A DNA stretch of 32,000 nt, from contig NZ_CP074694.1 of the NCBI RefSeq assembly GCF_018398935.1, positions 5,100,001 to 5,132,000 of the forward strand. Direction: 5' to 3'. Shown piece by piece: positions 1 to 31,667 of this stretch. Numbering within the stretch: position 1 is the first letter of the stretch; every line of letters begins with the position of its first letter. The notes under the pieces were generated by a model. It was not told the DNA's origin and made no database searches. It saw only the letters and a list, made by a program, of their open reading frames with translations. Source of the stretch: Telmatocola sphagniphila (lineage in GTDB: Bacteria > Planctomycetota > Planctomycetia > Gemmatales > Gemmataceae). The position numbers and the translations under genes are program-made.

Positions 1-471
1 GGTCAAGCCGATGAACACGCCGTATTGCTGGTTGAATTGATCGCCATCGGAGGGGCACAGGAAGCTCTTCACTACCGTGCGACCAGCCGTGATGCCCGGG
101 GCCGTGGCGCCCAGACCGATGGAGCCCCACCAGTTGCTGCTGTAAGAGTCCATGAACATATTCGCGGGAATCAGGTTGTACGCGTTACCCTGCTCGATGT
201 ACGGCAGAATATAGGCCATCACACCCAACCACGAGGTGCTGGCATTCAAGCCGGGAGGGAAGTAACCGTAGGCGCTTTCGTAGTTGTGAGAGGCCAGAGC
301 GATCTGCTTCAGGTTGTTCTGGCAGCTCATACGAGCCGCGGCTTCACGAACCTTCTGCACCGCCGGCAGCAACAGACCGATCAGGATCGCGATGATCGCG
401 ATCACCACCAGCAACTCGATCAGCGTGAAACCGCGTCGAGCTTGCTTACGGGCGTTCAACAATTTCAACAT
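1..471 (-). CDS. Prepilin-like DUF1559 / H-X9-DG family protein, N-terminal 157 codons only (C-terminus lies beyond the left window edge)
   Basis: Minus-strand ATG at 469-471 with GGAG about 6 nt upstream. Translation is [66 protein letters not shown]... and the frame stays open to base 1. It has the prepilin (class III) leader motif G/FTLIE. The first ~200 nt plus the leader are nearly identical to the paralog at 1890-2105. Confidence 0.85.
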
Positions 472-635
472 GCCGCACTCCAACAAAAGAAAAAAAGAAA
501 AATGAAAGAAACAACTCACAACTACTGCTTGTGTGGAATCGAGATTTATCGCAACTCCTGAACAAACAAACAGTTCCTGACAGCCTCAAATGTGGCGATG
601 AGATAATGTGCAGAACAGAGGAAAGTTTCTCTGCT

Positions 636-816
636 TAATTGATAATGAAAATGCTATTAAATAACAATGATTTATAAATTAATAATTGATTTTTAATTCG
701 ATTAAAATTTGTTTATCTGATGTGAAAATCAACAAATTAAAGAGTCAAATCTGGCTGAAGGCTCACTTCCACCAGATTATATAAATATTATTTAATTTAA
801 AATAAGACTCATTTAA
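636..816 (-). promoter_or_regulatory. AT-rich island upstream of the DUF1559 gene at 1-471 (putative promoter/regulatory region)
   Basis: By eye this stretch is strongly AT-rich (ttaattgataatgaaaatgctattaaataacaatgatttataaattaataattgatttttaattcg...) within an otherwise ~55% GC context. It contains the 14-mer AATATTATTTAATT at 784-797, which recurs twice at 6264-6295. Confidence 0.3.
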
Positions 817-990
817 TCAATCAGATCCCTTGGGTTTGGGAGCTTCTGCCGCTTTACCATTCTTGCCGACTGGACCCGGAGGAGCTGTCGGGGGAGCCTT
901 CGTCGCGGTAGGCTTGCTCGATTCGCCCCCACAGCCCGCCAGAAGACCAAAACAACCACACAGTACACACACGCTCAGTAACTTTCTCAC
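817..990 (-). CDS. Small lipoprotein, Pro/Ala/Lys-rich, 57 aa (cassette partner of the DUF1559 gene at 1074-2090)
   Basis: GTG at 988-990 (minus strand) with GAAGGG 8 nt upstream. Translation is (M)RKLLSVCVLCGCFGLLAGCGGESSKPTATKAPPTAPPGPVGKNGKAAEAPKPKGSD, with lipobox LLAGC. The ORF track starts it at ATG 1050, but that ATG lies inside a terminator-like hairpin and would add a non-signal-like extension. The start codon remains uncertain. Confidence 0.6.
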   Translation of the reverse strand: MRKLLSVCVLCGCFGLLAGCGGESSKPTATKAPPTAPPGPVGKNGKAAEAPKPKGSD

Positions 991-1013
991 TGCTTCTGCC
1001 CTTCTACTTGATG

Positions 1014-1051
1014 TTAAAACGAAAATGGCGAAAAGTTCCCTTCTCGCCATT
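1014..1051 (-). terminator. Intrinsic-terminator-like hairpin between the DUF1559 gene and its lipoprotein gene
   Basis: On the minus strand: AATGGCGA - 12 nt loop - TCGCCATT (perfect 8-bp stem, + coordinates 1024-1051), followed by TTCGTTTTAA. Confidence 0.5.
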
Positions 1052-1073
1052 CAATTTTCAAATCTCGAGTTTA

Positions 1074-2090
1074 TTAATTGCCGCCGATCAGATCGAAGTT
1101 GATGATATTACCATCCGAGATACCGCCGGCCGACTGCAGGGCCACCCAATCCGCTGAATAAGGAGTGGTACCCACGCCTTTGCGAAGGTGACGAACCGAG
1201 CCATCAGCATAAGCGAATTGAATGATATCGGTGTGCTTGCTGCTGAAGTTGTACCAATTCGAAGGTTTTGGCAGACCCCAGTACAAAGGCATCGAACCCG
1301 CACCCGCCCAGGTCAACGAATAATCCCGAGGACCGGTATCCGTCCCACCCAGGGTTTCGCCGAACGCGATCGTGTTCGACGTACCGTCGGTGATGGACAC
1401 AATCGACGTCTTGGAATCTAGAAAGTAGATCCCGCCGTACGGCTGGAAGGTCGGACCAAATGCACCCGCACAACCAATGTAGTTTGATCGACCGGCCGGG
1501 GGATTGGGACTGCTACCGCCACCCGCGGCGTTACCGCCGTTAGCGTTATAGAAGCCGTAGAAGGTCGAATTGTACTGATCGATCACCAGACCGATGAACA
1601 CGCCGTATTGCTGATTGAATTGATCGCCATCGGACGGACACAGATAAGACTTAATCACCGTTCGGGCGGCAGTGATACCCGGAGCCGTGGCACCCAAACT
1701 GATCGAGCCCCACCACAGTGAACTGTAGGTCGGCTGGAACATCGCCGAAGGAATCAGATTGTACGCATTGCCTTGTTCGATATAGGGCAGAATTTCAGCG
1801 AGGACCCCCAGCAGGGATTGATTACCCGCACTCATACCGGCTTGAAGATTCGTGGGATTCACGACCAAACCGGGAGGAAATACCCCGTAGGCGCTTTCGT
1901 AGTTGTGAGAGGCCAGAGCGATTTGCTTCAGGTTGTTCTGGCAGCTCATGCGAGCCGCGGCTTCACGAACCTTCTGCACCGCCGGCAGCAACAGACCGAT
2001 CAGGACTGCGATAATCGCAATCACCACCAGCAACTCGATCAGCGTGAAACCGCGTCGAGCCTGCTTTCGGGCATTCAACAATTTCAACAT
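1074..2090 (-). CDS. Prepilin-like DUF1559 / H-X9-DG family protein (338 aa)
   Basis: ATG at 2088-2090 with GGAG upstream. The ORF-track start at 2207 would add 39 implausible residues. N-terminus is [57 protein letters not shown]-terminal H-X9-DG motif is HTDIIQFAYADGSVRHL. A CPSD motif is also present. Confidence 0.9.
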   Translation of the reverse strand: MLKLLNARKQARRGFTLIELLVVIAIIAVLIGLLLPAVQKVREAAARMSCQNNLKQIALASHNYESAYGVFPPGLVVNPTNLQAGMSAGNQSLLGVLAEILPYIEQGNAYNLIPSAMFQPTYSSLWWGSISLGATAPGITAARTVIKSYLCPSDGDQFNQQYGVFIGLVIDQYNSTFYGFYNANGGNAAGGGSSPNPPAGRSNYIGCAGAFGPTFQPYGGIYFLDSKTSIVSITDGTSNTIAFGETLGGTDTGPRDYSLTWAGAGSMPLYWGLPKPSNWYNFSSKHTDIIQFAYADGSVRHLRKGVGTTPYSADWVALQSAGGISDGNIINFDLIGGN

Positions 2091-2249
2091 GCCGCACTCC
2101 AAAAAGGAAAAATGAAAAAAATAACCTCGACTTAGTAGGAACTGAAATTCCTGAGTAGCCAGCGGTTCCGTGTTGACCCAAACCAAGGAGAGAAAAAGGA
2201 TAGACAAAGAAGCAAAAGGGTCAGTCAGAGCCGTCTGTTTGAGGTTTGG

Positions 2250-2560
2250 ACATGATAAGTTAATGAGAAATTCATTTCAATATCTTTTAGCTTGTTTTTT
2301 ATCATATTATTCTAATTTTAGATTTTATCTATATTTATTAACTTTAATTAATATCAATCGCAAACTATTGAGCTTCCTACATTTAATGCGTTATGGCAGA
2401 ATTCTCTCGCTCGCGAAAGCACGTTTTTTCCGCTGCAAATGGAAATCACATTCTTCCTAAGACGATTTTTGCGGAGCATCGCGAATACTTTGTTCTTATC
2501 TTTTGCGATTTCCACTTAATAGATTTATAAAAATTTCTTAAGTCGAAAATTTGTTGTCTG
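2250..2560 (-). promoter_or_regulatory. AT-rich island upstream of the DUF1559 gene at 1074-2090
   Basis: Visibly AT-rich (atcatattattctaattttagattttatctatatttattaactttaattaatatc...). It contains ATATTATTCTAATT (2304-2317), a one-insertion variant of the 14-mer seen at 784 and 6264/6282. Confidence 0.3.
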
Positions 2561-3247
2561 GAGAGACATTTGGTGAGAATTCGGACTAAAAGTGAATGTC
2601 GACTCCGGCCGATTCTTGCCGGGTCTCAGATTGACGGCCCGGCTTCACCGGCAACTCGTCTGACAAAATCGATCCGTTTTTGAGACTGAATTTCGAAGGG
2701 CAAGGAAGATCTTTACGATGCCTGCCCTGCCCACTTTCACCTGGACGGCCGCGACCTCCCTACTTCAAAAACAGCTAAAACTCTTTGAAAATCAGTTGAT
2801 CGACCCATTCCATGACGGATAAGCCTGGGAATCGCTGGAGAAACTGACGCCAGACTCGACGATACCTGTGCTTCAGAGAATACAGATTCAAAACGCAGTA
2901 TTTCATCGACTGCATTTGCCTCGCACTGCCTTTTTGGTGCCTGAACTTCCCCCAATATACAAAACCGTGATCGGATGGCCGGGAAAGTGAAAACGGCGAA
3001 CCTTCCGCTCAAATCCGATTGCGGTCGAAGATTCTCGACCCACTGAATGCCGAGGCCGTTCGCGCCGTCGTCTTACGAGGAGTCGCGTTGTCGAAAAGCT
3101 CTGACAAAGAGGAATTCGAAGCCGAACGGGAGGCAATTTCGATCGATTTATTGGCGGGATGGGGTTCAGAAGTCGAGTTGCGAGATTTCGAAGTGCAGAC
3201 GCGAGGGGCCGTTGGTCCCTGTGGCGCGTCTGGTGAATGAAACAGGA

Positions 3248-3448
3248 TTACTGAGGCGTCTGAGGGGCGGTACTGTTGGATTGCTTGCCGTCGGAAGGGG
3301 AATTCTTACCGGGAGCGGCGGAAGCCCCTGCGGCGGCAGGTTTGGGAGCATCTTTGCCTACGGGCTTCAGATCCTTGTTGAGATCCTTTTCTCCGCAACC
3401 AACGAGAAAAAGCGTAGTAATCATGGCGAAGATTTGCAGCGAACGCAT
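3248..3448 (-). CDS. Small lipoprotein, Pro/Ala/Lys-rich, 66 aa (cassette partner of 3522-4586)
   Basis: Translation is MRSLQIFAMITTLFLVGCGEKDLNKDLKPVGKDAPKPAAAGASAAPGKNSPSDGKQSNSTAPQTPQ. It has a signal peptide plus lipobox FLVGC, and the mature part is low-complexity only. Confidence 0.65.
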   Translation of the reverse strand: MRSLQIFAMITTLFLVGCGEKDLNKDLKPVGKDAPKPAAAGASAAPGKNSPSDGKQSNSTAPQTPQ

Positions 3449-3477
3449 GCGGTCAACCTCTGAGTCTTTAAAAGAAA

Positions 3478-3516
3478 AAGAGCATTGGAATCACACTCCA
3501 ATGCTCGAAGAATCAA
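3478..3516 (-). terminator. Rho-independent terminator/attenuator between the DUF1559 gene and its lipoprotein gene
   Basis: On the minus strand: GAGCATTGGA-gtgtgat-TCCAATGCTC (perfect 10-bp stem, + coordinates 3490-3516), followed immediately by TTTTTCTTTT. Confidence 0.7.
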
Positions 3517-3521
3517 CTCGA

Positions 3522-4586
3522 TCAATTAGAAAGTACGTCGTTCAGGTTCACATCCCCATCCGACTTGCCGGCGAGTCGTTGTAAGGCATCCCAGGCGGTA
3601 TTGGTTCGATCTTTAATTTCCTGAGACGATGCAGGAGTATTGTTACCCGATCGAAGGCCACGCACCGAGCCATCGCCGAAGGCGACGTTGTAAATTCCGG
3701 TGTGAAAACTGGAATAGGTGAACAAGCCTTTATCTTTCGTAGCCGACCAATACGAAGGCATGCCGGTGGCGTTGAACCAAGAGAACGACCAGGAACGCGC
3801 ATTGTTATCGAAGGCACCGGTAACTTCGGCGAAGAGGATCGTATTCGAAGTTCCATCGGTGATGCTGATCAGCGCGGTCCCTTTTTCTCCGGTAAAGACC
3901 CCTTCGTGAGCGGCATAAAAAGGCTGCGAAAGACTGGCGGAATTGGTGACAACGTAGTGGCCGAGGGTTCCTCCAACTGGAATATAATTCGTCATGCCGG
4001 GCAATCCGCCCGAGGCTTGCAGGCTGCTGGAAGTGAATCCGTTGACGCTACCCGCTCCCCGGATGGTCGCTCCGCCGATAGGCGTCACGTTTCCTTGTCC
4101 GATGTCAAATGCAATCGCGCCTGAGGCTTGATAGAGAGAAGGATCGGAAGGACATTCGTAAGTTTTGACGCGATTTCGCGCGGCATTGAAAACCGTCGGC
4201 CAGAAAGCAATGAGACCCGTGGAATCATCCAATGGGGAAGTGGTGTTGGACTCCGGAGTCACGGTAGTGATGCGCGGGTCGATCTGCTTGTAAATATTGT
4301 CTTGCTCGAGATACGGCAATATGAGAGTCAGAGGTCCCACGTGGCTCCAACGATGCTTTCCGTAAGGCAGCACGCCATTCGCCGATTCATAGTTATGAGC
4401 ACCCAGAGCGATCTGCTTCATATTATTCTGGCAACTCATGCGGGCCGCGGCTTCACGAACCTTCTGCACAGCCGGTAGCAACAGACCAATCAAGATCGCG
4501 ATGATCGCGATCACCACCAGCAACTCGATCAGCGTAAAAGCCTTTCGAGGCCGGTTTTTCTTAAACCAACCCATTCGTTGAAACAT
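3522..4586 (-). CDS. Prepilin-like DUF1559 / H-X9-DG family protein (354 aa)
   Basis: ATG at 4584-4586 is preceded by AGGAG (caggagtattgATG). The ORF-track start at 4724 is an unlikely extension. N-terminus is [60 protein letters not shown]9-DG motif is [17 protein letters not shown]. Confidence 0.9.
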
Positions 4587-4724
4587 CAATACTCCTGATG
4601 AGAACAAGAAGCCCAAAGCAGCAATTCGGCAAAAAGAAATAAGCCTATACCAACGCCTCTCTGGGCATAAATCGGGCAGGGAAGAGGTATAATTAAAGTT
4701 ATTTTCATTAAAATAGCAATTCAA

Positions 4725-4900
4725 TAATATTTTCTTTATTTTTTAGAAAAACTCAAAAATGAATTGGAATACTCGCAAAAACGACTGGTTAATCTTCACA
4801 AAATTTGGGATTATCAGCGTTTTAGATTAAACGATAATTTGAATATGATAGTGTTATGACAAGCCATGTAATCGTTTTATTAAAATATCTTGATCAATTG
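4725..4900 (-). promoter_or_regulatory. AT-rich island upstream of the DUF1559 gene at 3522-4586
   Basis: Visibly AT-rich (caataatattttctttattttttagaaaaactcaaaaatgaattgg ... gttttattaaaatatcttgatcaattg). It sits between the lipoprotein terminator and the next cassette. Confidence 0.3.
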
Positions 4901-4914
4901 AAGTAGCACGAAGT

Positions 4915-4952
4915 GGAAAAATGAGAGGGGCCGGGCTTGGGCTTTCCCGGCC
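4915..4952 (-). terminator. Probable terminator after the lipoprotein gene 4974-5168
   Basis: On the minus strand: GGCCGGG - 10 nt - CCCGGCC (+ coordinates 4929-4952), then cctctcaTTTTTcc. The U-run starts 7 nt after the stem. Confidence 0.5.
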
Positions 4953-4973
4953 TGCAGAGCTTCAAAATCGATC

Positions 4974-5168
4974 TCAACTCTTGGGCGGAGCGTTGATCGC
5001 CGGAGCCTTACTTTGGGGCGATGCGGCCCCCGGCTTCACTCCGGCTGGCGGCTTAGCCGCCGCTTCCTTTGGGGCGGCATCGTGGGGCTTGCTTTCACTG
5101 TTACACCCCGTCAGGACCACGAGGCCAACAGCTCCCCGGGCCAACCAACTTAAACTGCGCTTTTTCAC
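4974..5168 (-). CDS. Small lipoprotein, Pro/Ala/Lys-rich, 64 aa (cassette partner of 5206-6201)
   Basis: GTG start at 5166-5168 with GAAGGGA upstream. Translation is MKKRSLSWLARGAVGLVVLTGCNSESKPHDAAPKEAAAKPPAGVKPGAASPQSKAPAINAPPKS, with lipobox VLTGC. Confidence 0.65.
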   Translation of the reverse strand: MKKRSLSWLARGAVGLVVLTGCNSESKPHDAAPKEAAAKPPAGVKPGAASPQSKAPAINAPPKS

Positions 5169-5205
5169 TGCGTTCCCTTCTTGAAAATATGGGTTTTAAG
5201 TTCGA

Positions 5206-6201
5206 TCAGTTCGAATACGGATTGGGCGAAGGGATCACCTGGCCATCCGCCATCCCCGAGAGTTGAATCAGACCGCCGAAGGTGTTGCCGCCTCCTTTGA
5301 TCAGCGTTCGCACCGAGCCGTCGCAGTAGGTCACGTTCAGAACTCCCGGATGGTTGCTGCCGAATTGATACCAGCCGGCTTCCACGTTGGGGATATCGTA
5401 AGCGGTCCCCATGGAGCCGACCCCGAACCAGGAAAAGAGCGTCGAGCGCGTTCCGGTCTGTTCTCCACCGAGACTTTCGCCGAACATCAGGGTGTTGGAG
5501 GTTCCATCGATGATACCGGTGATAGTCACCTTGGATTGCGTCGTGAATACGCCTTGATACGGGGCCCAGCCGTTGCTCGAAGCGAATGCCCCAAGCCCGC
5601 CGGCCACGCCCAAATAATTCGTCAAACCGAGCGTGGGGGTGGCGCCCGGACCGAAACTCGCCGCCGTTATGGAACCGGAATTCGGATCGTACTCTTGAGC
5701 TGCCAGCAGCACGAAAATGCTGGCACTGGAGGCCCATTGATAAGGATCATCCGAAGGACACTGAAGAATCTTGAGGCGATACTGCGCGGCCGTCCACTGC
5801 TCGTTGACACCCCACCAGTTGGGGCCTGGGGTGTTGACGCCTCCCGTGAGCGTCGAAGAGAATATCGAGTAAATGTTCCCTTGTTCGAGATAGGGTAGTA
5901 ACTGAGGAATTAGACCCACAAAACGGTAACTCCAGAAGTCGCCCACGCCATAATTAGTGCCAGGGGCCGGCCCATAGTATCCCGCCGGCAGCACGCCATA
6001 GGTGCTTTCAAAATTCAGAGCGGCCAGACCCAACTGCTTGAGATTATTCTGGCAGGACATGCGAGCGGCTGCCTCGCGAACTTTCTGCACGGCCGGTAAC
6101 AGCAGGCCGATGAGAATGGCAATAATGGCGATGACCACTAAGAGTTCGATCAGCGTGAAACCGCGACGTAACCTGCGCACTTCCGATGGCAATGACAACA
6201 T
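5206..6201 (-). CDS. Prepilin-like DUF1559 / H-X9-DG family protein (331 aa)
   Basis: ATG at 6201 with GGGAG upstream. N-terminus is [56 protein letters not shown]. It has a CPSD motif and the H-X9-DG motif [17 protein letters not shown]. Confidence 0.9.
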
Positions 6202-6254
6202 TCTTACTCCCGATAGAATGAAACGAAAAAAACAACTGTGGGCAATGCGTCCTG

Positions 6255-6480
6255 ATAAACATGAATATTATTTAATTTGTTAATATTATTTAATTATTAA
6301 CCGCATTTTAAGCTATCGGCAGGTGGTGACCGCGACTTCTCGTTGAAAATATGTTAGTCAAATCCCGGGTAAATGAGCAAGAGCTGTTCCCGGATTAAAA
6401 AATGCTCATCATTTATTAATGAGAGTTAATCAGCCATAATATAAATATATTTTAATATTAATGGAAATTTCGAAGTTATT
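6255..6480 (-). promoter_or_regulatory. AT-rich island upstream of the DUF1559 gene at 5206-6201, with tandem 14-mer repeats
   Basis: AATATTATTTAATT occurs at 6264-6277 and again at 6282-6295 (18-bp register). The near-palindromic ATAAATATATTTTAATATTA lies at 6441-6460. Confidence 0.35.
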
Positions 6481-6665
6481 GTGCGGGAAAATGGCCGACT
6501 TTTTAGGTCGTTTTTAATGAGTAGCGGATCTGAAAATGGCTCTCATTTTAACCCGATTTTTCGAGAGCAAAATCGGGAGGTAATTAGGGTGTCCTGAAAT
6601 TCCCTTGAGCCGATGTCGCCAGATAATACAGCTCGTCCTGGAGATTGTGCAATATTGCTCACCAC

Positions 6666-8486
6666 TCACTTCAAATAGAGCATCACCACCGCCAGATCCG
6701 CCGGAGTAATTCCACTGATTCGGCTCGCCTGCCCGATACTGCGCGGGCGAATTTTGCCTAGCTTTTCGCGAGCCTCCGCACGCAACTGGGGAATGCCCTC
6801 ATAAGCGAACGCTTCGGGAATCTTCTTCTCTTCCCACTTCTGAAAGCGCTCGACCTGTTCCGACTGCCGATTGACGTAACCGGCGTACTTCAATTCCAGA
6901 ATCACCTGCTCGATTACCTCGGGCTGGGAATTCCACTCGGCCAGCGCCGGCTGGAATTCCACCATCTGGCTCCATTCCGTATCGGTGCGGCGCAGCCATT
7001 TTTCCAGCGTTTCGCCGTCGTGTCGATTCTTCTTCAAGAACGTCAGGAGCTCGGCAATCCTTTCCTCTTTGCGCGCCAACCGGGTCGTCGCTTCCGGAGT
7101 GATGGCGCCGATTTTCTCCGCCAGCGGCGTCAACCGCCGGTCGGCGTTGTCGTGCCGCAGCAGCAGCCGGTATTCCGCCCGCGAAGTGAACATCCGATAG
7201 GGTTCGTCCACACCCTTGGTCACCAGATCGTCGATCAGCACACCGATGTACGCCTGCGATCGATCGATGACGAAACCCGGCTTCCCGGCCACTTTCAGCG
7301 CTGCGTTATAGCCCGCGAGTAATCCTTGAGCCGCCGCTTCTTCATAGCCCGTCGTTCCATTGATTTGACCGGCGAAAAAGAGGCCGCTGACCGGCTTGGT
7401 TTCCAGAGTGGAGTAGAGCTGCGTCGGCGGGGCGAAATCGTATTCCACCGCATAGCCCCAGCGCATCACTTCCGCTTCTTCCAGGCCGGGAATTTCCTTC
7501 AACATGGCCTGCTGAACGTCCTTGGGCAGACTGGTGGAAATGCCGTTGCAGTAGTATTCCCAGGTGTGCAGCCCTTCCGGCTCCAGAAATATCTGATGAG
7601 CGGTTTTGTCCGCAAAGCGGACGATTTTGTCTTCAATACTCGGGCAATAGCGCGGCCCGCAGGTCTTGATCTGGCCGCTGTACATCGGCGAGCGATGCAG
7701 ATTCGCCCGAATGATGTCGTGCACCTTATCGTTGGTGTACGTGATGTGGCAATTCCGCTGCGGCACGGTGATCTTCGTAGTCGCAAAACTAAACGGCCGC
7801 GGGTGGGGATCGCCCGGCTGCTCTTCCAACTTGGAAAAATCGATCGTGCGGCCATTTAATCGACAAGGCGTACCGGTTTTGAATCGCTTCAGTTCGAAGC
7901 CGCATTCCGACAGACTATCCGAAAGATTCTCGGCCACCGCATCCCCGGCCCGGCCCCCCTGCGTCTTCGATTCGCCGGTGTGCATCAGCCCCTTGAGAAA
8001 AGTACCCGTCGTCAGTACCACTGTCAGGGCGCGATAGAGCGTATCGCCGCGCGCCAGCACGCCGCGAATTTTTCGCATCCCCGGGCTATTTTCGAAGACG
8101 AGAGCTTCGACGAGTTCCTGGCGAAGCGTCAGATTGTTCTGTTCTTCGACCCAGTTCTTCATGGTGAACTGATAGAGCTTTTTATCGGCCTGGGCACGCG
8201 GGCTGTGCATGGCCGGGCCCTTCGATTCGTTGAGCATTCGAAACTGAATGCCGGAAGCATCGATGCATCGGCCCATCACGCCGCCCAAGGCGTCGATTTC
8301 GCGGACGATTTGCCCCTTGGCAACGCCGCCGATGGCCGGGTTGCAGGACATCTGAGCCACGGTATCGGCATTGATGGTCAATAGAACCGTCTTGGCGCCC
8401 AGGCGCGCCGCGGCCATGGCCGCTTCGACTCCCGCGTGCCCCGCCCCCACTACCACCACATCGAAATCGTAGGTCAACGCTGGCAT
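6666..8486 (-). CDS. mnmG: tRNA uridine 5-carboxymethylaminomethyl modification enzyme MnmG (GidA)
   Basis: 606 aa. It has the N-terminal FAD fold [25 protein letters not shown], followed by [39 protein letters not shown] and [20 protein letters not shown]. This is the full-length MnmG pattern. Confidence 0.97.
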
Positions 8487-8740: not shown

Positions 8741-9043
8741 CTAGGGAAGTCGCTTTCGCCAAAAATTCCAATCAACACGGCCGTGTTGTACGGCGACAAT
8801 GAGAATTAGATTTGACTCAATTTTGTAATAAATGACTTGTGGAAATTTCAGAAGTGGACACGCACGCATGCCATCTTCGATGATTCCATACATTTCTGGA
8901 TTACTGGCGATTCGAGAAGTTTGCTTTGCCAACGCCGAGTAAAATCGTTCCCCCAATCCAGAGCGTATGAGTTCATAGTCGGTATAAAGCTCGTCGATTT
9001 CAGCAATCGCTTCTTTTAAGTAGACGATGGGGCGAGTGTTCAT
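8741..9043 (-). CDS. Type II toxin-antitoxin system toxin, ParE/RelE family (100 aa)
   Basis: The small protein has a ParE/RelE-like layout (..AEIDELYTDYELIRSGLGERFYSALAKQTSRIASNPEMYG...FPQVIYYKIESNLILIVAVQHGR). Its start overlaps the upstream gene's stop in ATGA (9040-9043). Confidence 0.8.
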   Translation of the reverse strand: MNTRPIVYLKEAIAEIDELYTDYELIRSGLGERFYSALAKQTSRIASNPEMYGIIEDGMRACPLLKFPQVIYYKIESNLILIVAVQHGRVDWNFWRKRLP

Positions 9044-9397: not shown

Positions 9398-10645
9398 TCA
9401 CCGCAGCCATTTATCGGCGAAATCACAGAAGATCTTCCAGTCGTCCTTAATCATCGAGTGCTTGCCAGGGCGGATCCAGTAACCGAGCTTGCTATCGATG
9501 AATTGGCCTACCTCCGGCATTTTTTCCGACGCACATTCGCCGGCTTTCAGCAACTTGTAAACCGGCTCGGCCGACTTCAGCATCTGAAACTGCCCGGCCG
9601 GATTGGCCCATTCATCCTCAATCGCATTGGTGATCAACAGCGGACGCGGCGCACAGAGCGCCATCAGACAGTTCTGATCGAATGGCAGCTTACTGGTATC
9701 GGGCCCAAACTGTTTGAAATTGGTGTCGAACCAGTGGGGAAATGCCTTATTGATGCGCTCGACGCTTTCGTTCTTCGGATTCTTGGTACGGCTCGGAGCG
9801 GTGCCGCCGCAGCCCGCCTGGTGGGGAATAACCACAGCAAAGCGCTCGTCGAATGCCCCGGCCACTATCGTCGCCTTGCCCAACCGGCTGTGACCCACCA
9901 AAGCGACCTTTTTGGAATCGATCGCTTTATCGGTTTCCAGATAATCGAGTATCCGGCTCGAGCCCCAGGCCCAGACCATCACGGACGCCGGATCATCATC
10001 TTCGGGTGTCTTCAATTTCCACAGGTGCTTTTGCACGCCCAGCCGTTGATCGGCCCGGTCGGGATCGATGTCGCCATAATAGAGCGTGGCCACGGCGTAA
10101 CCCCGGTCGATGATGTATTCCAGATTCCAGGTATCGACCTGTTTGCCACGACCCTCTTCGGTGGCTCGATTCGGTTGGGCTTTGTTCTCGCTGCCCAGCA
10201 TCCAAACGGTGGGAAGGTGAATGCGTTTATCGGCTAAAAGCGAGTGATTTCCCGTGAAATTATAGCCGAGAAAACAGGGCACCGGACCTTGCGCTTTATT
10301 GGGTAGAGCCATCAGTAGATAAGATTTGGGACAGCTCTCGGACGGAAAAGAGATTTCCACTTCGCGAAGAGTGGCCTTGCCCCCAAATACCTGCTTATCT
10401 TCAAAGAGAATTTTGGCCGTGACCTTTATGGCATCCGGTTTCCGGCCATACATGTAGTATTCGAAAAGATGTTGCAGTTCTGGTTTGCGTTTGGTGTTCC
10501 ATTCCGCGGCCGAGGTGATTTTGGTACCATCCATTCCAACCAGGGGATCGACGGCTTGTTGCGAGGGGAGATCCTTGAAAGCGGGATAGGTTTGGGCCTG
10601 GACCGTTGAAGCGAACAAAAACAAAATGAAACAGAAGCGGTTCAT
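9398..10645 (-). CDS. Secreted alpha/beta hydrolase, CE15 glucuronoyl-esterase-like
   Basis: The ATG at 10645 gives MNRFCFILFLFASTVQAQ as a signal peptide (the ORF-track start at 10654 is a TTG). The N-terminal region DPLVGMDGTKITSAAEWNTKRKPELQHLFEYYMYG and the nucleophile motif VGHSRLGKATIVAGAFDERFAVVIPHQAGCGG resemble the CE15 G-x-S-R-x-G block. Confidence 0.7.
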   Translation of the reverse strand: MNRFCFILFLFASTVQAQTYPAFKDLPSQQAVDPLVGMDGTKITSAAEWNTKRKPELQHLFEYYMYGRKPDAIKVTAKILFEDKQVFGGKATLREVEISFPSESCPKSYLLMALPNKAQGPVPCFLGYNFTGNHSLLADKRIHLPTVWMLGSENKAQPNRATEEGRGKQVDTWNLEYIIDRGYAVATLYYGDIDPDRADQRLGVQKHLWKLKTPEDDDPASVMVWAWGSSRILDYLETDKAIDSKKVALVGHSRLGKATIVAGAFDERFAVVIPHQAGCGGTAPSRTKNPKNESVERINKAFPHWFDTNFKQFGPDTSKLPFDQNCLMALCAPRPLLITNAIEDEWANPAGQFQMLKSAEPVYKLLKAGECASEKMPEVGQFIDSKLGYWIRPGKHSMIKDDWKIFCDFADKWLR

Positions 10646-10695
10646 GAGAGTCAATCCTGTAGGAAATTCCGCCGCGAGGCCTCCCGATAATACCC

Positions 10696-27009: not shown

Positions 27010-27915
27010 ATGAATAGGCGCCCTGCGTTTACCCTGATTGAGTTACTGGTAGTGATTGCCATCATCGCCATCTTGATCGGTTTATTACTACCCGCCGTGC
27101 AGAAAGTGCGCGAAGCCGCCGCTCGGATGAGCTGTCAGAACAATCTGAAGCAGATCGGATTGGCCATGCTCAATTACGAGTCGGCCATTGGCGGCTTACC
27201 TCCTCGTCGAAATACTGTGGTCGGTACGCAGCGAGGCTGGGGACCGGCCATTCTTTCTTACGTCGAACAAGCGTCTCTCAGCGGCAATTACCGGTTGGAT
27301 AAAAATTTCTACGCACCGGAGAACGCCGACAATATCATCGTCCCGCTTAAGCTGTTTGTTTGCCCCTCGGGTCCCGGACCAAGAACATTGAATGTCACTC
27401 AGGGAGGAATTACCGCGATAGGAGCCGCCGGGGATTATTTCGGCCCGAACAGCTTCTCCTCGAAGCTTTACGGAGTGCAGTCTCTAAGCGGCGATAATAC
27501 GGTCACCGCCATGAACGACAACGTCAACCGGAAGCTGACCGCTATCACGGATGGGTTATCCAATACGCTGCTGGTGACCGAGCAAGCCGGTCGCCCCGAT
27601 TTCTACATTCGGAGTGTCAAACAGGCTTCCAACACATCCATGAGCAATTATGCCTGGTGGGGCCCTTGGGCCTCCTACCAGGTTTTCGCGTTCTGGCAAT
27701 TCGGTTCCGATGGCATTACCAAGGACGGCAGCGGCGGCCCGTGCACGATCAATTGCAACAACAGTCAGGGGGTTTACGCCTTTCACACGGGCGGGGCCAA
27801 CGCCGTTTATGCGGATGGTTCCGTGCACTTCATGAGACAGGGAATGAGCCCTTCCACCCTGTTCGCTCTGGTGACCATCAACGGCGGCGAAATTCTAGGC
27901 GATGATGCTTACTGA
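27010..27915 (+). CDS. Prepilin-like DUF1559 / H-X9-DG family protein (301 aa)
   Basis: N-terminus is [58 protein letters not shown]. It has a CPSG motif and the H-X9-DG motif [24 protein letters not shown] lies upstream of the ATG. Confidence 0.9.
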
Positions 27916-27958
27916 TCCTCCGCTTTCACCCATCTCCACACTTGAGGAATTTATTGAG

Positions 27959-28735
27959 ATGTCAACAGTTTCTCCTCCGGCCGCGACCGCGGTGGTCTCA
28001 GCCGAGCATTTGACCAAGAGATTTCATCAGGGGGATTCGGTCGTCGAAGCCATCAAAGATGTTTCCCTGAAAATCGAGGACGGAGAATTCGTCGCTCTCA
28101 TGGGAGCGAGTGGTTCGGGCAAAAGCACCTTCCTACACGTGATGGCCGGGCTTACTCGCCCCGATGAAGGAACTCTGACAATAGCGGATACCGATCTCAG
28201 CCGGTTATCCGATTCCCGGCTGACGCATTTTCGCCGACGCAAAATCGGTCTGGTTTTTCAAGCATTTAACCTCATTCCCACACTCACGGCGGAAGAGAAT
28301 ATCACACTTCCCTTGCTGACCGATGGCCGCAGCGAGCAGATCGAAGACAGACTCGAACCGCTATTGGATCGCCTCGGCCTGATGGCCCGCCGACACCACC
28401 GGCCCGATGCGCTCAGCGGCGGCGAGCAACAGCGCGTGGCCATTGCGCGGTCTTTGATAACTCAACCGGCGCTGATTCTAGCCGATGAACCGACGGGCAG
28501 TCTCGATTCGGTGAACGGCCAGAACATTTGCCGACTCTTGCGGGAACTCTCCGAAGAGCAACGTCGAACGATTGTCGTCGTCACCCACGAGCCGAGTGTG
28601 GCGGTGTGGGCCAGCCGGATTGTGGTCATGAAGGATGGCCGGATTCTCACCGAGTTTCGGGCCAGCGACTTCCAGGATGCGCAGTCTCTGGCGATCCATT
28701 ATCAGAACGTGATAAAGTCCGCAATCCCCGCCTGA
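27959..28735 (+). CDS. ABC transporter ATP-binding protein, MacB/LolD/FtsE-like
   Basis: Walker A is GASGSGKST, Q-loop is VFQAFNL, signature is LSGGEQQRVAIARSL, Walker B is LILADEPTGSLD and the H-loop is VVVTHE. Start is ATG 27959 (GAGGAA upstream), or alternatively ATG 27902, which would overlap the DUF1559 gene by 14 nt. Confidence 0.9.
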   Translation: MSTVSPPAATAVVSAEHLTKRFHQGDSVVEAIKDVSLKIEDGEFVALMGASGSGKSTFLHVMAGLTRPDEGTLTIADTDLSRLSDSRLTHFRRRKIGLVFQAFNLIPTLTAEENITLPLLTDGRSEQIEDRLEPLLDRLGLMARRHHRPDALSGGEQQRVAIARSLITQPALILADEPTGSLDSVNGQNICRLLRELSEEQRRTIVVVTHEPSVAVWASRIVVMKDGRILTEFRASDFQDAQSLAIHYQNVIKSAIPA

Positions 28736-28745
28736 GGAAGCGAAC

Positions 28746-31667
28746 ATGCTGCTCGCCGAATTTCAAATCGTTCTCAAGTTGGTGCGGGAGCAGGCTCGCT
28801 ATCGGCCCGGCCGCGTTCTGTTAACCAGCCTTTCGACCATCGCGGCGGCCTGCATCGTGGTGTGGGTGGTCAGCGGTTACGATTCTTTGGTTGCTCAGTT
28901 CGGCAATATGGGCGGCGAGTACGTCGGTCGGTACGAGATGCTGTTGCTTCCCAAACGCAACGAAGAAGGGGCCCAGCAATTCGCTCGGGGCAATCAATTA
29001 TCTCAGGAATTTCTCCAGAGCATTCAACAGGATACCGACGTGGCTCTCGCCGAGCCGGTGTTTGAAATCGCCGCGGCCGTAACTAAATCGGGCGCAGCAC
29101 CAGTACCAAGAAAAGAGATTCCATCGACTGGCGATGCTACGAGCCCGGGCGGAAAATCTTCCGGCCCCCGCATCATGGGCGGCATGGAGCAGCTCCGTTC
29201 ACAAAGCAAAGCGCCGACTCTAGTGGCAACCGACTCGGCCGAACCGCTGCACACCCTAGTGGAAGGGCGCTGGCTCGATCCGAAGCCAATCGAAAGCCCA
29301 GAAGGAGTACTCACCCGCGATTCCGCCGAATTTCTCGGCGTTCGACTGGGGGAAGCCGTCGCCGTGGCCACGATCGGGACCAAGTCTGCCGATGTGAAAG
29401 TGAAAATCGTCGGGATCGTCGAACAACCGAAGCGATTACCCGGCCCGAAATTCATGGTCGGTTTGCCACCGACGCGAGCCGGGGCACTCCTCGGTGGTCC
29501 CGCCAGTAATGCCTTGTATGTAAACCGGTCTTTAGTTCAGAAAATCATGGGAGCTGCGCCTCGAATCAGTTACATCGGCCTGGTTCTGAAACCGGGAGTG
29601 AATGCGGACGATTTTCTGACCAAGTGGACCGACCGATTCGTCAATTCTTTTCCTCCGGTGGAAGTGCGGACAGCCGCGAGAGTGGATAACGAAGTTTCGC
29701 AAAGCACCACATTCGAAACCGTTCGCACGCAGGCTTACTCGGCGACGGCCATTTCTCTGCTAGCGGCGCTTTTCATCATTTTCACAACACTCAGTATGGG
29801 TGTCGACGAGCGAATCCGCCAGTTCGCCATCCTGCGGGCGGTGGCTTTCACGAAATGGCAGATCGCCGTCCTGATTGCTCTGGAAAGCCTCTTTCTGGGA
29901 ATCCTCGGCTGGGTGGGAGGCCTGCTCGCCGGCTGGGGTCTGCTGAAGATCATGGCTCAGATTCGACCACAATCCCTGTACGAAGGAGCCTCTCTCGGAA
30001 CCTGGTGCATTGTTCTATCGGGCGTCTGTGCGCTCGGTGGCTCGCTGGCCGCCGCCATTCTCCCGGCCTGGCGGGCAACACGGGTGAATCCCTTGGAGGC
30101 CATGGCTCCCCGGCGACCGATCCACTCCGGCCGGCTTCCGCTTCTGATGACAATCAGCGGTTTACTCTTAATTGCCATTAATCCGCTGGTAATCTTTGTG
30201 ATTCCCATGCAGGATACGTCGCGCTATGCCATCGCGGCGGCCATCGGTTACACGACTCAAATCATCGGCTTCGTGTGCCTGGCTCCGCTAGCTATTATTT
30301 TCACCGAACGTTTACTCGGTCCGCTTCTGGCTCGATTGCTGCGCTTGAATCGTCGTTTACTGGCCACGCAGCTTTCCTCCAACATGTGGCGAACGGCCGG
30401 CACTACCGTGACTCTAACCATAGGCCTCGGTCTGTTTGTCGCTACCCAGACCTGGGGCTATTCCATGTTAGCCCCCTTCACACCCGGCGAGTGGGCTCCC
30501 GATCTGCTCGTTTATATTTCCCGGGGGGGCGTTCCCGATTCGGAGATCGACGCCGTGCGAAACGTACCGGGAGTGATTCCCGAAAAGTTTCTGCCGCTGG
30601 CCGTCAAGCAGGTGAAGTTCGCGGAGGATATCACCGGTTTCAAAATTCGCCCCTCGGCCACCCGGCAGGACACGTGCGTGATGGTCGGCGTGGATCCCGA
30701 TCTCGCACTCGGTGGCGAACATCCGCTCTTTCCATTTCAATTCGTCGAAGGGTCTCCCTCGGAAGCGATTCAGAAATTGAAGCAGGGCCGTTATTGTCTG
30801 GTGCCCGATCATTTCACCCGAGAATCGGGCTTGGGGGTGGGACAGAAGTTTGCCGTCCTGACCTCCGAGGACCGGGGACAGACCGTGGAATACGTGATAG
30901 CGGGCGTTGTCTCCATGCCCGGCTGGCACTGGTTATCCAAAACCGGTTTCCGGCGCGGCCGGGCGGCCGGACTGATGTTCGGCAACTTCGATACAGTGCG
31001 GGCCGATTTCAAGACCGGTCCGACCACAATGTTCTGGGGAAATACCAATGGCAAGGCCTCGAACGAACAAATCAAGGCGTCGATTCAAGCGATCGTCGAT
31101 CGCCGATCGATGGAAAATCCGAAAGCGATCCCGAGTCCGACCACGACTCGAGCTGGTACCCCGCGCCGCGATCTTTCCAAAACTTCCGTGACTCTGCAAA
31201 CGGCCCAGGAAGAGCGCGATGAGGTACGCGACCGCGCCGACAAGATTATCTGGGCTCTCAGTGAGCTTCCTCTAGTTACTCTGCTGGTAACCTCCTTGGG
31301 TTTAATCAACACCGTTCTGTCTTCCATTCGAGCCCGCCGTTGGGATCTGGGGGTGTTGCGGGCATTAGGTGTAACGCGCTTCGGTTTGTTTCGGTTAATA
31401 GTCGCGGAATCGATTTTGATAGGAGTGGTGGCGATATTGCTGAGCCTGGGTTTCGGTACGCTGGCCGGGTATTGCGGCACGGGGGTAACGCGTTATGTGA
31501 ATATTCGCGGCGGACAGTATACGCCGATGGTGATTCCGTGGGCTCAATTAGCGGAGGGTTTTGCGATTGCGCTTTCACTCTGTTTGCTGGCAGCGATTTG
31601 GCCCGCGTTTAGAACGGGCCGAACGGAGCCCTTGCGGTTGTTGCAGGCTGGCCGCGCCGCAGGGTGA
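28746..31667 (+). CDS. ABC transporter permease with two fused FtsX/MacB-type modules (973 aa, about 10 TM)
   Basis: Two copies of the FtsX-type four-helix pattern are present (..FAILRAVAFTKWQIAVLIALESLFLGILGWVGGLLAGWGL.. and ..LGVLRALGVTRFGLFRLIVAESILIGVVAILLSLGFGTLAGY..). Each follows a large extracytoplasmic domain. GAGGAAG lies upstream of the ATG, which is 10 nt after the ATPase stop. Confidence 0.9.
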   Translation: MLLAEFQIVLKLVREQARYRPGRVLLTSLSTIAAACIVVWVVSGYDSLVAQFGNMGGEYVGRYEMLLLPKRNEEGAQQFARGNQLSQEFLQSIQQDTDVALAEPVFEIAAAVTKSGAAPVPRKEIPSTGDATSPGGKSSGPRIMGGMEQLRSQSKAPTLVATDSAEPLHTLVEGRWLDPKPIESPEGVLTRDSAEFLGVRLGEAVAVATIGTKSADVKVKIVGIVEQPKRLPGPKFMVGLPPTRAGALLGGPASNALYVNRSLVQKIMGAAPRISYIGLVLKPGVNADDFLTKWTDRFVNSFPPVEVRTAARVDNEVSQSTTFETVRTQAYSATAISLLAALFIIFTTLSMGVDERIRQFAILRAVAFTKWQIAVLIALESLFLGILGWVGGLLAGWGLLKIMAQIRPQSLYEGASLGTWCIVLSGVCALGGSLAAAILPAWRATRVNPLEAMAPRRPIHSGRLPLLMTISGLLLIAINPLVIFVIPMQDTSRYAIAAAIGYTTQIIGFVCLAPLAIIFTERLLGPLLARLLRLNRRLLATQLSSNMWRTAGTTVTLTIGLGLFVATQTWGYSMLAPFTPGEWAPDLLVYISRGGVPDSEIDAVRNVPGVIPEKFLPLAVKQVKFAEDITGFKIRPSATRQDTCVMVGVDPDLALGGEHPLFPFQFVEGSPSEAIQKLKQGRYCLVPDHFTRESGLGVGQKFAVLTSEDRGQTVEYVIAGVVSMPGWHWLSKTGFRRGRAAGLMFGNFDTVRADFKTGPTTMFWGNTNGKASNEQIKASIQAIVDRRSMENPKAIPSPTTTRAGTPRRDLSKTSVTLQTAQEERDEVRDRADKIIWALSELPLVTLLVTSLGLINTVLSSIRARRWDLGVLRALGVTRFGLFRLIVAESILIGVVAILLSLGFGTLAGYCGTGVTRYVNIRGGQYTPMVIPWAQLAEGFAIALSLCLLAAIWPAFRTGRTEPLRLLQAGRAAG

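Follow-up and report, generated by a model that had tools for sequence, protein, structure and literature searches.

Small lipoprotein genes paired with DUF1559 genes in the planctomycete Telmatocola sphagniphila

The 32,000-nucleotide (nt) stretch of the Telmatocola sphagniphila (Gemmataceae) genome that is analyzed here, and which we refer to as the window, begins with an array of four tandem cassettes on the minus strand (window 1-6201). Each cassette lies behind its own long AT-rich upstream region and contains a gene for a pilin-like DUF1559 protein (copies c1 to c4; Table 1). The three complete copies, c2, c3 and c4, are each followed by an open reading frame (ORF) for a small lipoprotein of 57-66 amino acids (aa), which we call a mini-lipoprotein or mini. 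We consider it very probable that the c3 and c4 pairs are conserved two-gene units with a real small lipoprotein, and somewhat less so for the c2 pair. About 40% of the DUF1559 genes in Planctomycetota are followed by a lipoprotein partner, of which the window unit has a clade-specific, domain-less form. Apparently new here are the partner classes, a lipoprotein family termed DLNKDLKP and the coupling of this family to one DUF1559 clade; the large genes are ordinary members of their family.

DUF1559 is an already described family of unknown function (PMC10632474, PMC2754498, PMC8567305). In many planctomycete genomes no other paralogue family is as large, and the published examples have 68-91 copies. 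For example, P. limnophila has 68 DUF1559 paralogues, two of which are essential (PMC10632474), R. baltica has 74, which are stress-regulated (PMC2754498), and 25 of the 91 such proteins of Tuwongella immobilis were detected in membrane fractions (PMC8567305). In the literature, the genes of the family are considered individually. A preliminary description of this DNA was aware of no earlier account of the pairing; however, Seeger et al. (2021) remark in one sentence that DUF1559 genes are 'often flanked' by genes whose products carry type-I or type-II signal peptides (PMC8567305). No paper in the searchable literature goes further: partner classes, the mini variant and the DLNKDLKP family are not defined in any, nor is the strict coupling of this family to one DUF1559 clade or the fact that the pairs co-diversify. 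The pairing is no surprise in principle, and it makes DUF1559 function experimentally approachable. A large fraction of the genes has a dedicated lipoprotein gene, which renders the function of the family more tractable, in one clade the partner is a ~60-aa lipopeptide with a short conserved motif, and the pairs co-diversify, so that defined, testable pairs are available.

The frequency of the arrangement was assessed in 80 loci across Planctomycetota (L001-L080), which were obtained with conserved N-terminal DUF1559 peptides against one genome per species. One rule was used throughout: a gene was counted as paired if a lipobox ORF started within 200 nt downstream on the same strand. Enough downstream sequence was available for 88 DUF1559 genes, including the three of the window; 36 of these (41%) are followed by such an ORF, compared with 20 of 410 non-DUF1559 genes (5%). 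Antisense scans satisfy the rule at a rate of 5% and shuffles at 2%. Given the 5% background, pairing of all three window genes would be very unlikely by chance (about 1e-4). The claim that the pairing goes beyond chance adjacency therefore holds, and the orthologous arrays and c3 relatives described below agree with it.

The usual partner is a lipoprotein of 105-190 aa with the motif VSGxVTxDGKP...IPxKY...FDL. Judging from its sub-threshold matches to CarboxypepD_reg (PF13620, 28-29 bits against a cut-off of 32.3) and to DUF6795, this protein is a putative folded beta-sandwich lipoprotein of the CarboxypepD_reg-like type. A hidden Markov model (HMM) made from 17 of these partners identified 34 members in the loci, all of them on the same strand as the DUF1559 gene; 25 are just downstream of it, seven are just upstream and two or three are elsewhere, with 32 of the 34 adjoining a DUF1559 gene. 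The genes located directly upstream (by 41-240 nt, in L019, L058, L067, L069, L025, L006 and L072) either have a reversed order or are part of the preceding cassette, and L019 has a beta-sandwich lipoprotein gene on each side of its DUF1559 gene.

The neighbour table covers 84 non-window DUF1559 genes. Downstream of these there are 23 beta-sandwich partners, about 10 other lipobox proteins, two mini or disordered lipoproteins and one doubtful short lipobox ORF (<50 aa); eight are followed directly by the next DUF1559 gene and 40 by none of these. The beta-sandwich cassettes (23/84, in L001-L080) are like the window cassettes in gene order, strand, short spacer and a signal peptidase II (SPase-II) signal on the second gene. 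However, their partners are large and folded, whereas the window partners are domain-less and have no similarity to them. Neither the beta-sandwich HMM, run against window segments of at least 50 codons and against the gaps, nor PF13620, run against the window, gave a match. The order 'DUF1559 then lipoprotein' is thus a frequent but non-universal arrangement, of which the window is a rare variant. Further partner classes follow DUF1559 genes in L024 and L032, in L079 and L080, and in L084 (2280-2723, minus strand). They are a lipoprotein family of ~140-160 aa with the motif ALKAWQxG, a helical lipoprotein of ~105 aa and a 147-aa signal-anchored protein that has no lipobox; none of the three has a Pfam or NCBIfam match.

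The picture is different in the DUF1559 clade of the window, where the domain-less mini follows 12 of 13 genes, often in tandem arrays, as opposed to two of 84 phylum-wide. Pairing with a mini, which the preliminary description had put forward as a two-component module, is thus a property of this clade and not the general form in Planctomycetota. A paralogue of the c3 mini (63 aa, 68% identity) is encoded in the same genome. A matching array is present on a metagenome contig, L084. On it, a 59-aa lipoprotein follows a c3-like DUF1559 gene, a 73-aa lipoprotein whose tail is Pro-rich follows a c4-like gene, and the contig ends within a c2-like gene. Over the 14 codons of GCGEKDLNKDLKPV, the window and L084 differ by nine synonymous and no non-synonymous changes.

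A profile search with the c3 mini among 1.84 billion representatives recovered 31 cluster representatives, all of which are 45-101 aa long. Their alignment (A6) has the pattern GCGxxD[LPI]NK[DN]LKP[VI]xxx[AT]P[KR]P, which continues directly after the lipidated Cys; the G-C, N and P columns are invariant and the G, D and K columns nearly so. This family, which we call DLNKDLKP and to which the c3 product belongs, had no prior annotation. Its tail is rich in G/A/P/K and often ends in two hydrophobic residues plus Lys. For example, many A6 members (P0125-P0154) end in VIK, ALK, LLK, VVK or IMK, an ending that is absent from the Telmatocola copies; it may be a second, C-terminal recognition element. 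The mature parts of the small proteins had been described as low-complexity sequence only. For the c3 mini this has to be withdrawn: because C-G-x-x-D-L-N-K-D-L-K-P-V is conserved next to the lipid anchor, the protein is not purely low complexity.

The relatives of the c3 mini are found in the same setting elsewhere. In nine of 10 loci found with the peptide pattern (L086-L095), the mini immediately follows a DUF1559 gene on the same strand; the remaining locus is truncated by the end of its contig. Two divergent members found with the profile, P0133 and P0151 (L096 and L097), are both directly downstream of a c3-like DUF1559 gene. Therefore, all 11 evaluable c3-type relatives from elsewhere (9/9 pattern-found and 2/2 profile-found) immediately follow a DUF1559 gene.

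A sequence search with the c4 mini found only the c4 mini itself, and its conservation is one of position only, with counterparts in L084, L085 and L098-L101. In L085, a 54%-identical c4 orthologue is followed by a 56-aa lipoprotein that also starts with GCNS.... The four c4-clade loci L098-L101 contain seven DUF1559 genes, and behind six of these there is a lipobox ORF (64-78 aa) whose tail is rich in P/A/G/K/S; two of the six ORFs had been overlooked in gene calling. Small lipobox ORFs were missed by gene callers in L081, L100 and L101. The c2 mini has a positional analogue in L001.

When the DUF1559 proteins were clustered, by the unweighted pair group method with arithmetic mean (UPGMA) only, the groups corresponded to the partners. 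All of the partners in the c3 clade are of the DLNKDLKP type; the c4 clade contains c4, L085 and L084_b; and the c2 clade contains c2, L084_c and L001, the last with a poly-Pro lipoprotein as partner. The beta-sandwich-partnered genes and a fifth DUF1559 copy in the window fall outside these three clades. The DUF1559 subclades thus track partner type, and the pairs co-diversify. Because the DUF1559 proteins cluster by partner type, it is well supported that the pairs were inherited and duplicated as units since before the lineages split and that the cassette is a co-inherited two-gene unit.

As the preliminary description had it, a 57-66 aa lipobox ORF is present 37-83 nt downstream of each complete copy, the spacers from the DUF1559 stop being 83 nt (c2), 73 nt (c3) and 37 nt (c4). 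The lipobox rule resembles PROSITE PS51257 ([LVI][ASTVI][GAS]C; Cys between positions 15 and 35; a K or R in the n-region; no charge in the h-region), and all three ORFs conform to it with LLAG/C20 (c2), FLVG/C18 (c3) and VLTG/C22 (c4). Each has an RBS-like purine tract (ribosome-binding site; GAAGGG or GAGG), together with the n-region and h-region features that the rule asks for. In a codon-usage test trained on the other window genes, in which DUF1559 genes score about +0.3, the log-likelihood per codon is +0.08 for c2, +0.27 for c3 and +0.19 for c4, and the other two frames are negative. UniRef names both the c3 and c4 products 'Lipoprotein'. The c2 mini-ORF, with either start, is missing from the public protein collection and is apparently unannotated in T. 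sphagniphila, where the locus tags go from the c2 DUF1559 gene straight to KIH39_20455. It is the least secure of the three ORFs. Such small genes are often missed by annotation pipelines, and the present results flag them: one of the window's three is unannotated and others were skipped by callers.

It would be possible to regard the small ORFs as non-functional, either as chance 3' ORFs or as decayed stubs of a beta-sandwich partner gene, and the missing annotation and weak codon score of c2, the ORFs skipped by gene callers and the lack of Pfam or NCBIfam family matches for the mini-ORF products fit such a view. We find it highly improbable. All of the ORFs have a canonical lipobox, at 8-20 times the background rate; size is consistent over the 31 cluster representatives, which also share the conserved motif; the changes in this motif are synonymous only; and the codon signal is positive in frame and negative off frame in all three. 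In addition, no remnant of a beta-sandwich gene is present in the gaps, and the corresponding HMM gives no match in the window. A search of the intergenic gaps for decayed genes with the DUF1559 HMM was likewise empty.

The three window minis resemble each other in architecture and position only. Homology among them was considered and rejected: a profile of the c3 mature region gives 0.3 bits with c2 and 2.1 bits with c4, which is no better than with shuffles, and the c2 and c4 products are not in the DLNKDLKP family. An AlphaFold2 model of the c3 mini, made from a shallow alignment, has the signal-peptide helix only, and its mature part is coil with a predicted local distance difference test score (pLDDT) of about 50. 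The c2 ORF can also be read from an alternative ATG at 1050 (817-1050, minus strand), which gives 77 aa. This reading matches NF058595, a 'lipo-invert putative C-terminal anchoring domain' ('invert_tail'), with 26.9 bits against a cut-off of 37 (E 4.7e-6); the match is sub-threshold and was treated as compositional, which it probably is.

The four large genes are full members of the DUF1559/TIGR04294 family. Their identification as minus-strand DUF1559 genes with prepilin leaders is borne out by Pfam SBP_bac_10/DUF1559 (PF07596; 88.7-151.1 bits for c1-c4 against a cut-off of 23.3, E 8.5e-25 to 8e-44), N_methyl (PF07963; 34-37 bits against 21.2) and TIGR02532 (27-34 bits against 16.3), with all three models above cut-off. 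The complete copies also exceed the cut-off of 19 bits for TIGR04294 (H-X9-DG), with 20.0 (c2), 24.5 (c3) and 28.3 bits (c4); c1 is cut by the window edge before this motif, and its partner ORF, if any, is outside the window. The three complete copies had been said to end with the H-X9-DG motif. The motif is indeed present, but it is not the C-terminal end, since 36-50 residues come after it. The leaders have the features of a class III signal peptide, namely G at -1 in c1, c2 and c4 (RRG/) or A in c3 (RKA/), Phe at +1, and FTLIELL with Glu at +5, followed by a hydrophobic stretch of ~20 residues.

The N-termini of the copies are identical over ~39 consecutive alignment columns, and beyond this region identity falls to 44-54%. 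Even behind the identical peptide, the DNA of the copies is only 65-91% identical, the first 257 nt of c1 being 91% identical to c2. As judged from these low identities, c1-c4 are old paralogues kept by selection and not recent copies. Invariant or nearly invariant residues among the DUF1559 homologues are Glu+5, two Cys (in MSCQNN and CPSD), DGTSNT, a Trp, and the His...Asp-Gly of HX9DG. An AlphaFold2 model of c4 built with 79 homologues (pLDDT 92, predicted template modelling score 0.87) has a 52-residue N-terminal helix (17-68) and a seven-strand beta-sheet head, that is, the long N-terminal alpha-helix packed on an antiparallel beta-sheet head by which pilins are recognized.

Table 1. Cassette genes, stem-loops and upstream regions in window 1-6201 (a slash stands between positions -1 and +1 of a signal peptide cleavage site)
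Feature	Window positions	Strand	Description
DUF1559 copy c1	1..471	-	Partial, N-terminal 157 aa (window end cuts gene); leader ...RRG/FTLIELL; SBP_bac_10 E 8.5e-25 plus N_methyl
DUF1559 copy c2	1074..2090	-	338 aa; prepilin leader, long hydrophobic helix, HX9DG motif (HTDIIQFAYADG); WP_246539362.1 'DUF1559 domain-containing protein'
DUF1559 copy c3	3522..4586	-	354 aa; leader ...RKA/FTLIELL; HX9DG motif; WP_213495078.1
DUF1559 copy c4	5206..6201	-	331 aa; leader ...RRG/FTLIELL; HX9DG motif
Mini-lipoprotein c2	817..990	-	GTG 990 start, 57 aa; MRKLLSVCVLCGCFGLLAG/C...; mature part 38 aa, P/A/K/G-rich; RBS GAAGGG
Mini-lipoprotein c3	3248..3448	-	66 aa, KIH39_20455; MRSLQIFAMITTLFLVG/CGEKDLNKDLKPV..., then P/A/G/S/K-rich tail; 'DLNKDLKP' family
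Mini-lipoprotein c4	4974..5168	-	GTG start, 64 aa, KIH39_20465; MKKRSLSWLARGAVGLVVLTG/CNSESKP..., P/A/K-rich tail
Stem-loop	1023..1052	-	13-bp stem then T-run, between c2 DUF1559 stop and mini-ORF; sequesters alternative ATG
Stem-loop	3480..3506	-	12-bp stem then TTTTTCTTTT, between c3 DUF1559 stop and mini-ORF; terminator- or attenuator-like
Upstream region of c1	472..816	-	AT-rich, GC 0.30; presumed promoter and leader
Upstream region of c2	2091..3247	.	1.16 kb (1157 nt), GC 0.45; no ORF with family signal
Region upstream of c3, downstream of c4 cassette	4587..4973	-	AT-rich, GC 0.36; GC-rich hairpin and T-run right after c4 mini-ORF
Upstream region of c4	6202..6665	-	AT-rich, GC 0.37; bounded by mnmG/gidA 6666-8486

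We propose that the cassette encodes a pilin-like DUF1559 protein together with its own small Sec/SPase-II lipoprotein, and we regard such a partnership, taken as a whole, as evenly balanced between being right and wrong. The DUF1559 protein would insert its pilin helix into the cytoplasmic membrane and presumably be processed by a prepilin peptidase, while the mini is predicted to be acylated on its Cys. A short membrane-proximal segment of the mini (GEKDLNKDLKPV in the c3 family) would then dock on its DUF1559 partner at the surface of the membrane, the Pro/Ala/Lys-rich tail serving as a flexible spacer. As a cognate anchor or chaperone, the lipoprotein would keep the pilin-like protein in place, orient it or escort it. 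We would place a direct contact between the two proteins at, or just short of, an even prospect. A much broader proposal is that the DUF1559 expansion consists of two-component modules, each with a membrane-anchored pilin-like head and a cognate downstream lipoprotein (a beta-sandwich protein or, in the Telmatocola clade, no more than a lipid-anchored peptide). The modules would form paralogue-specific envelope complexes (e.g., units for substrate capture or surface display to which a machine like those of type II secretion (T2SS) or type IV pili (T4P) attends), and the minis would be LptM-like lipopeptide ligands that read their partner via a motif of ~12 residues by the acylated Cys. This proposal is unlikely to be correct.

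The comparison with LptM (YifL) deserves comment. LptM, which binds LptDE, is a lipoprotein of <70 aa in which the lipobox is immediately followed by a conserved segment and the tail varies (PMC10567701). The minis resemble it in having a short conserved post-Cys segment and a poorly conserved Pro/Ala/Lys/Thr-rich tail, and LptM acts by binding a larger envelope protein. They are not homologous to it, however: the c3 mini scores 13.0 bits with NF047847, whose cut-off is 27.7, no single stretch of it passes alone, and PF13627 gives no match at E <= 0.1. Furthermore, LptM is single-copy and is not encoded beside its partner, whereas there is one mini per paralogue, immediately downstream. The parallel in architecture (PMC10567701) raises the alternative that a mini acts only transiently, in biogenesis. 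As a chaperone of the pilotin or LptM kind, it would help the cognate DUF1559 protein, or the fibre or secretion machine of that protein, through export, sorting or assembly and then dissociate. The signal-plus-Cys regions match the LptM model weakly (13-19 bits), and an intercistronic hairpin would yield the sub-stoichiometric expression expected of a catalytic helper. On the other hand, the scores place the minis outside the LptM family, and one helper per paralogue would be unusual for assembly factors. We consider a transient role distinctly unlikely.

Several observations weigh against the partnership that we propose. Forty of the 84 sampled DUF1559 genes (48%) have no lipoprotein neighbour, and in L030 (4105-11377) eight head-to-tail DUF1559 genes have no lipoprotein genes between them. 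Because such partnerless genes and arrays exist, a lipoprotein partner is not obligatory for the DUF1559 family. The L030 array, which is on the Planctomycetaceae chromosome CP051247.1 and has spacers of 2-35 nt, is a different array type. Two of the three window cassettes have a terminator-like hairpin and T-run between the genes, which could uncouple their expression. The c2 and c4 minis share no motif with the c3 family beyond composition, and the c2 ORF has the weaknesses described above. Finally, the invariance of DLNKDLKP in L086-L095 is partly circular, as this peptide was the search pattern, and the codon degeneracy of the peptide in these loci is not independent evidence; it is the window-versus-L084 comparison and the profile-found members that count.

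Some of these points would be expected if the minis were real lipoproteins that do not physically partner with DUF1559 proteins. The adjacency would then come from segmental duplication, or hitch-hiking, and from shared envelope regulation, with each protein acting alone in the periplasm. The hairpins, which are as common between unrelated same-strand genes, fit separate transcription units; the mature minis are mostly low complexity, and their three types have no detectable common motif; and nearly half of the DUF1559 genes do without such a neighbour. However, adjacency, strand and order are kept across 40-55% DUF1559 identity and in unrelated metagenomes (11/11 and 12/13), DUF1559 subclades track partner type, and the beta-sandwich family is nearly confined to DUF1559 surroundings (32/34). 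Hitch-hiking alone would not preserve a 60-aa ORF with synonymous-only change in its motif. We consider independent neighbours somewhat unlikely.

The hairpins are widespread. Perfect stem-loops of 12-21 bp, some of them with T-runs, are present in DUF1559-to-mini spacers whenever the spacer is at least 70 nt, as in window c2 and c3, in L084 (9124-9244) and in L085, L088, L090, L091 and L095, and eight of the 14 mini-cassette spacers have strong stems. The c2 spacer folds with a minimum free energy of -25.5 kcal/mol (z -3.7), and the alternative ATG of the c2 mini lies inside this hairpin. A role as a cassette-specific attenuator was considered and rejected: stems of at least 10 bp are found in 65% of the DUF1559-to-lipoprotein spacers and in 51% of other same-strand spacers (p = 0.36). 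Because they are equally frequent in these control spacers, intercistronic hairpins are a general planctomycete intergenic feature and not a cassette-specific one. The regions upstream of the DUF1559 genes are 345-464 nt long (1157 nt for c2) with a GC content of 0.30-0.45, compared with ~0.52 for the window. A ~60-nt T-rich leader before the start codon is common to c1 and c2 only, and an Rfam scan of the whole window found no family.

As indicated above, the large proteins resemble type IV pilins and pseudopilins (GspG/PulG, PilA and ComGC) in their class III signal peptide, Phe+1, Glu+5 and long helix on a beta-sheet head. Pilin profile matches to the window proteins cover the N-terminal ~60 residues, and in both sequence profiles and Foldseek, type IV pilins and PulG align to c4 over the N-terminal helix only. 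For example, GspG (TIGR01710) gives 28-36 bits against a cut-off of 88.85, over profile positions 1-60 of 134 only. In contrast to the pilins, DUF1559 proteins have a head of about 270 aa with no significant match to a solved pilin head, or to any structure in the PDB by Foldseek (E >= 1). They also occur as tens to hundreds of paralogues per genome, scattered outside T2SS/T4P operons. No prepilin peptidase, secretin or T2SS/T4P assembly ATPase turned up among the window genes examined; the sole ATPase found is a subunit of the LolD/MacB type of ATP-binding cassette (ABC) system (27902-28735), which is not a T2SS/T4P assembly ATPase.

Verru_Chthon cassettes (TIGR02596-02599 in the NCBIfam descriptions) are multi-copy units of four prepilin-like proteins in Verrucomicrobia. 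They are similar to the window cassettes in being repeated multi-gene units around prepilin-type N-termini in the PVC (Planctomycetes-Verrucomicrobia-Chlamydiae) superphylum. They differ in that the matches are N-terminal only (protein D 24-26 bits against 70, protein C 16-18 against 256) and in that they comprise four proteins, compared with the two-gene unit of a pilin-like protein and a lipoprotein described here.

The DUF1559 arrays also have consequences for assembly. Short-read assemblies of T. sphagniphila (L081-L083; Logan SRR14506983 and SRR14506984) break exactly at DUF1559 genes, presumably due to the near-identical N-terminal coding repeats. Therefore, metagenome assemblies probably contain too few DUF1559 arrays, or contain them in pieces.

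Elsewhere in the window, the fifth DUF1559 gene (27010-27915, plus strand) encodes 301 aa with the leader MNRRPA/FTLIELL and is not followed by a lipoprotein gene. Its last 14 nt are shared with the start of the LolD/MacB-type ABC ATPase gene mentioned above, which is also on the plus strand and which is followed by a gene for a 973-aa duplicated FtsX/MacB_PCD permease (28746-31667, plus strand). These three genes (27010-31667) look like one operon. The company of an ABC system of the 'mechanotransmission' type (LolCDE/MacB class) may be a clue to membrane extraction or handling of DUF1559 proteins. Finally, a ParE-type toxin and Unstab_antitox pair (8741-9043, minus strand, and an adjoining ORF of ~74 aa) sits between mnmG/gidA (6666-8486) and a homologue of fungal-type glucuronyl esterase (9398-10654).

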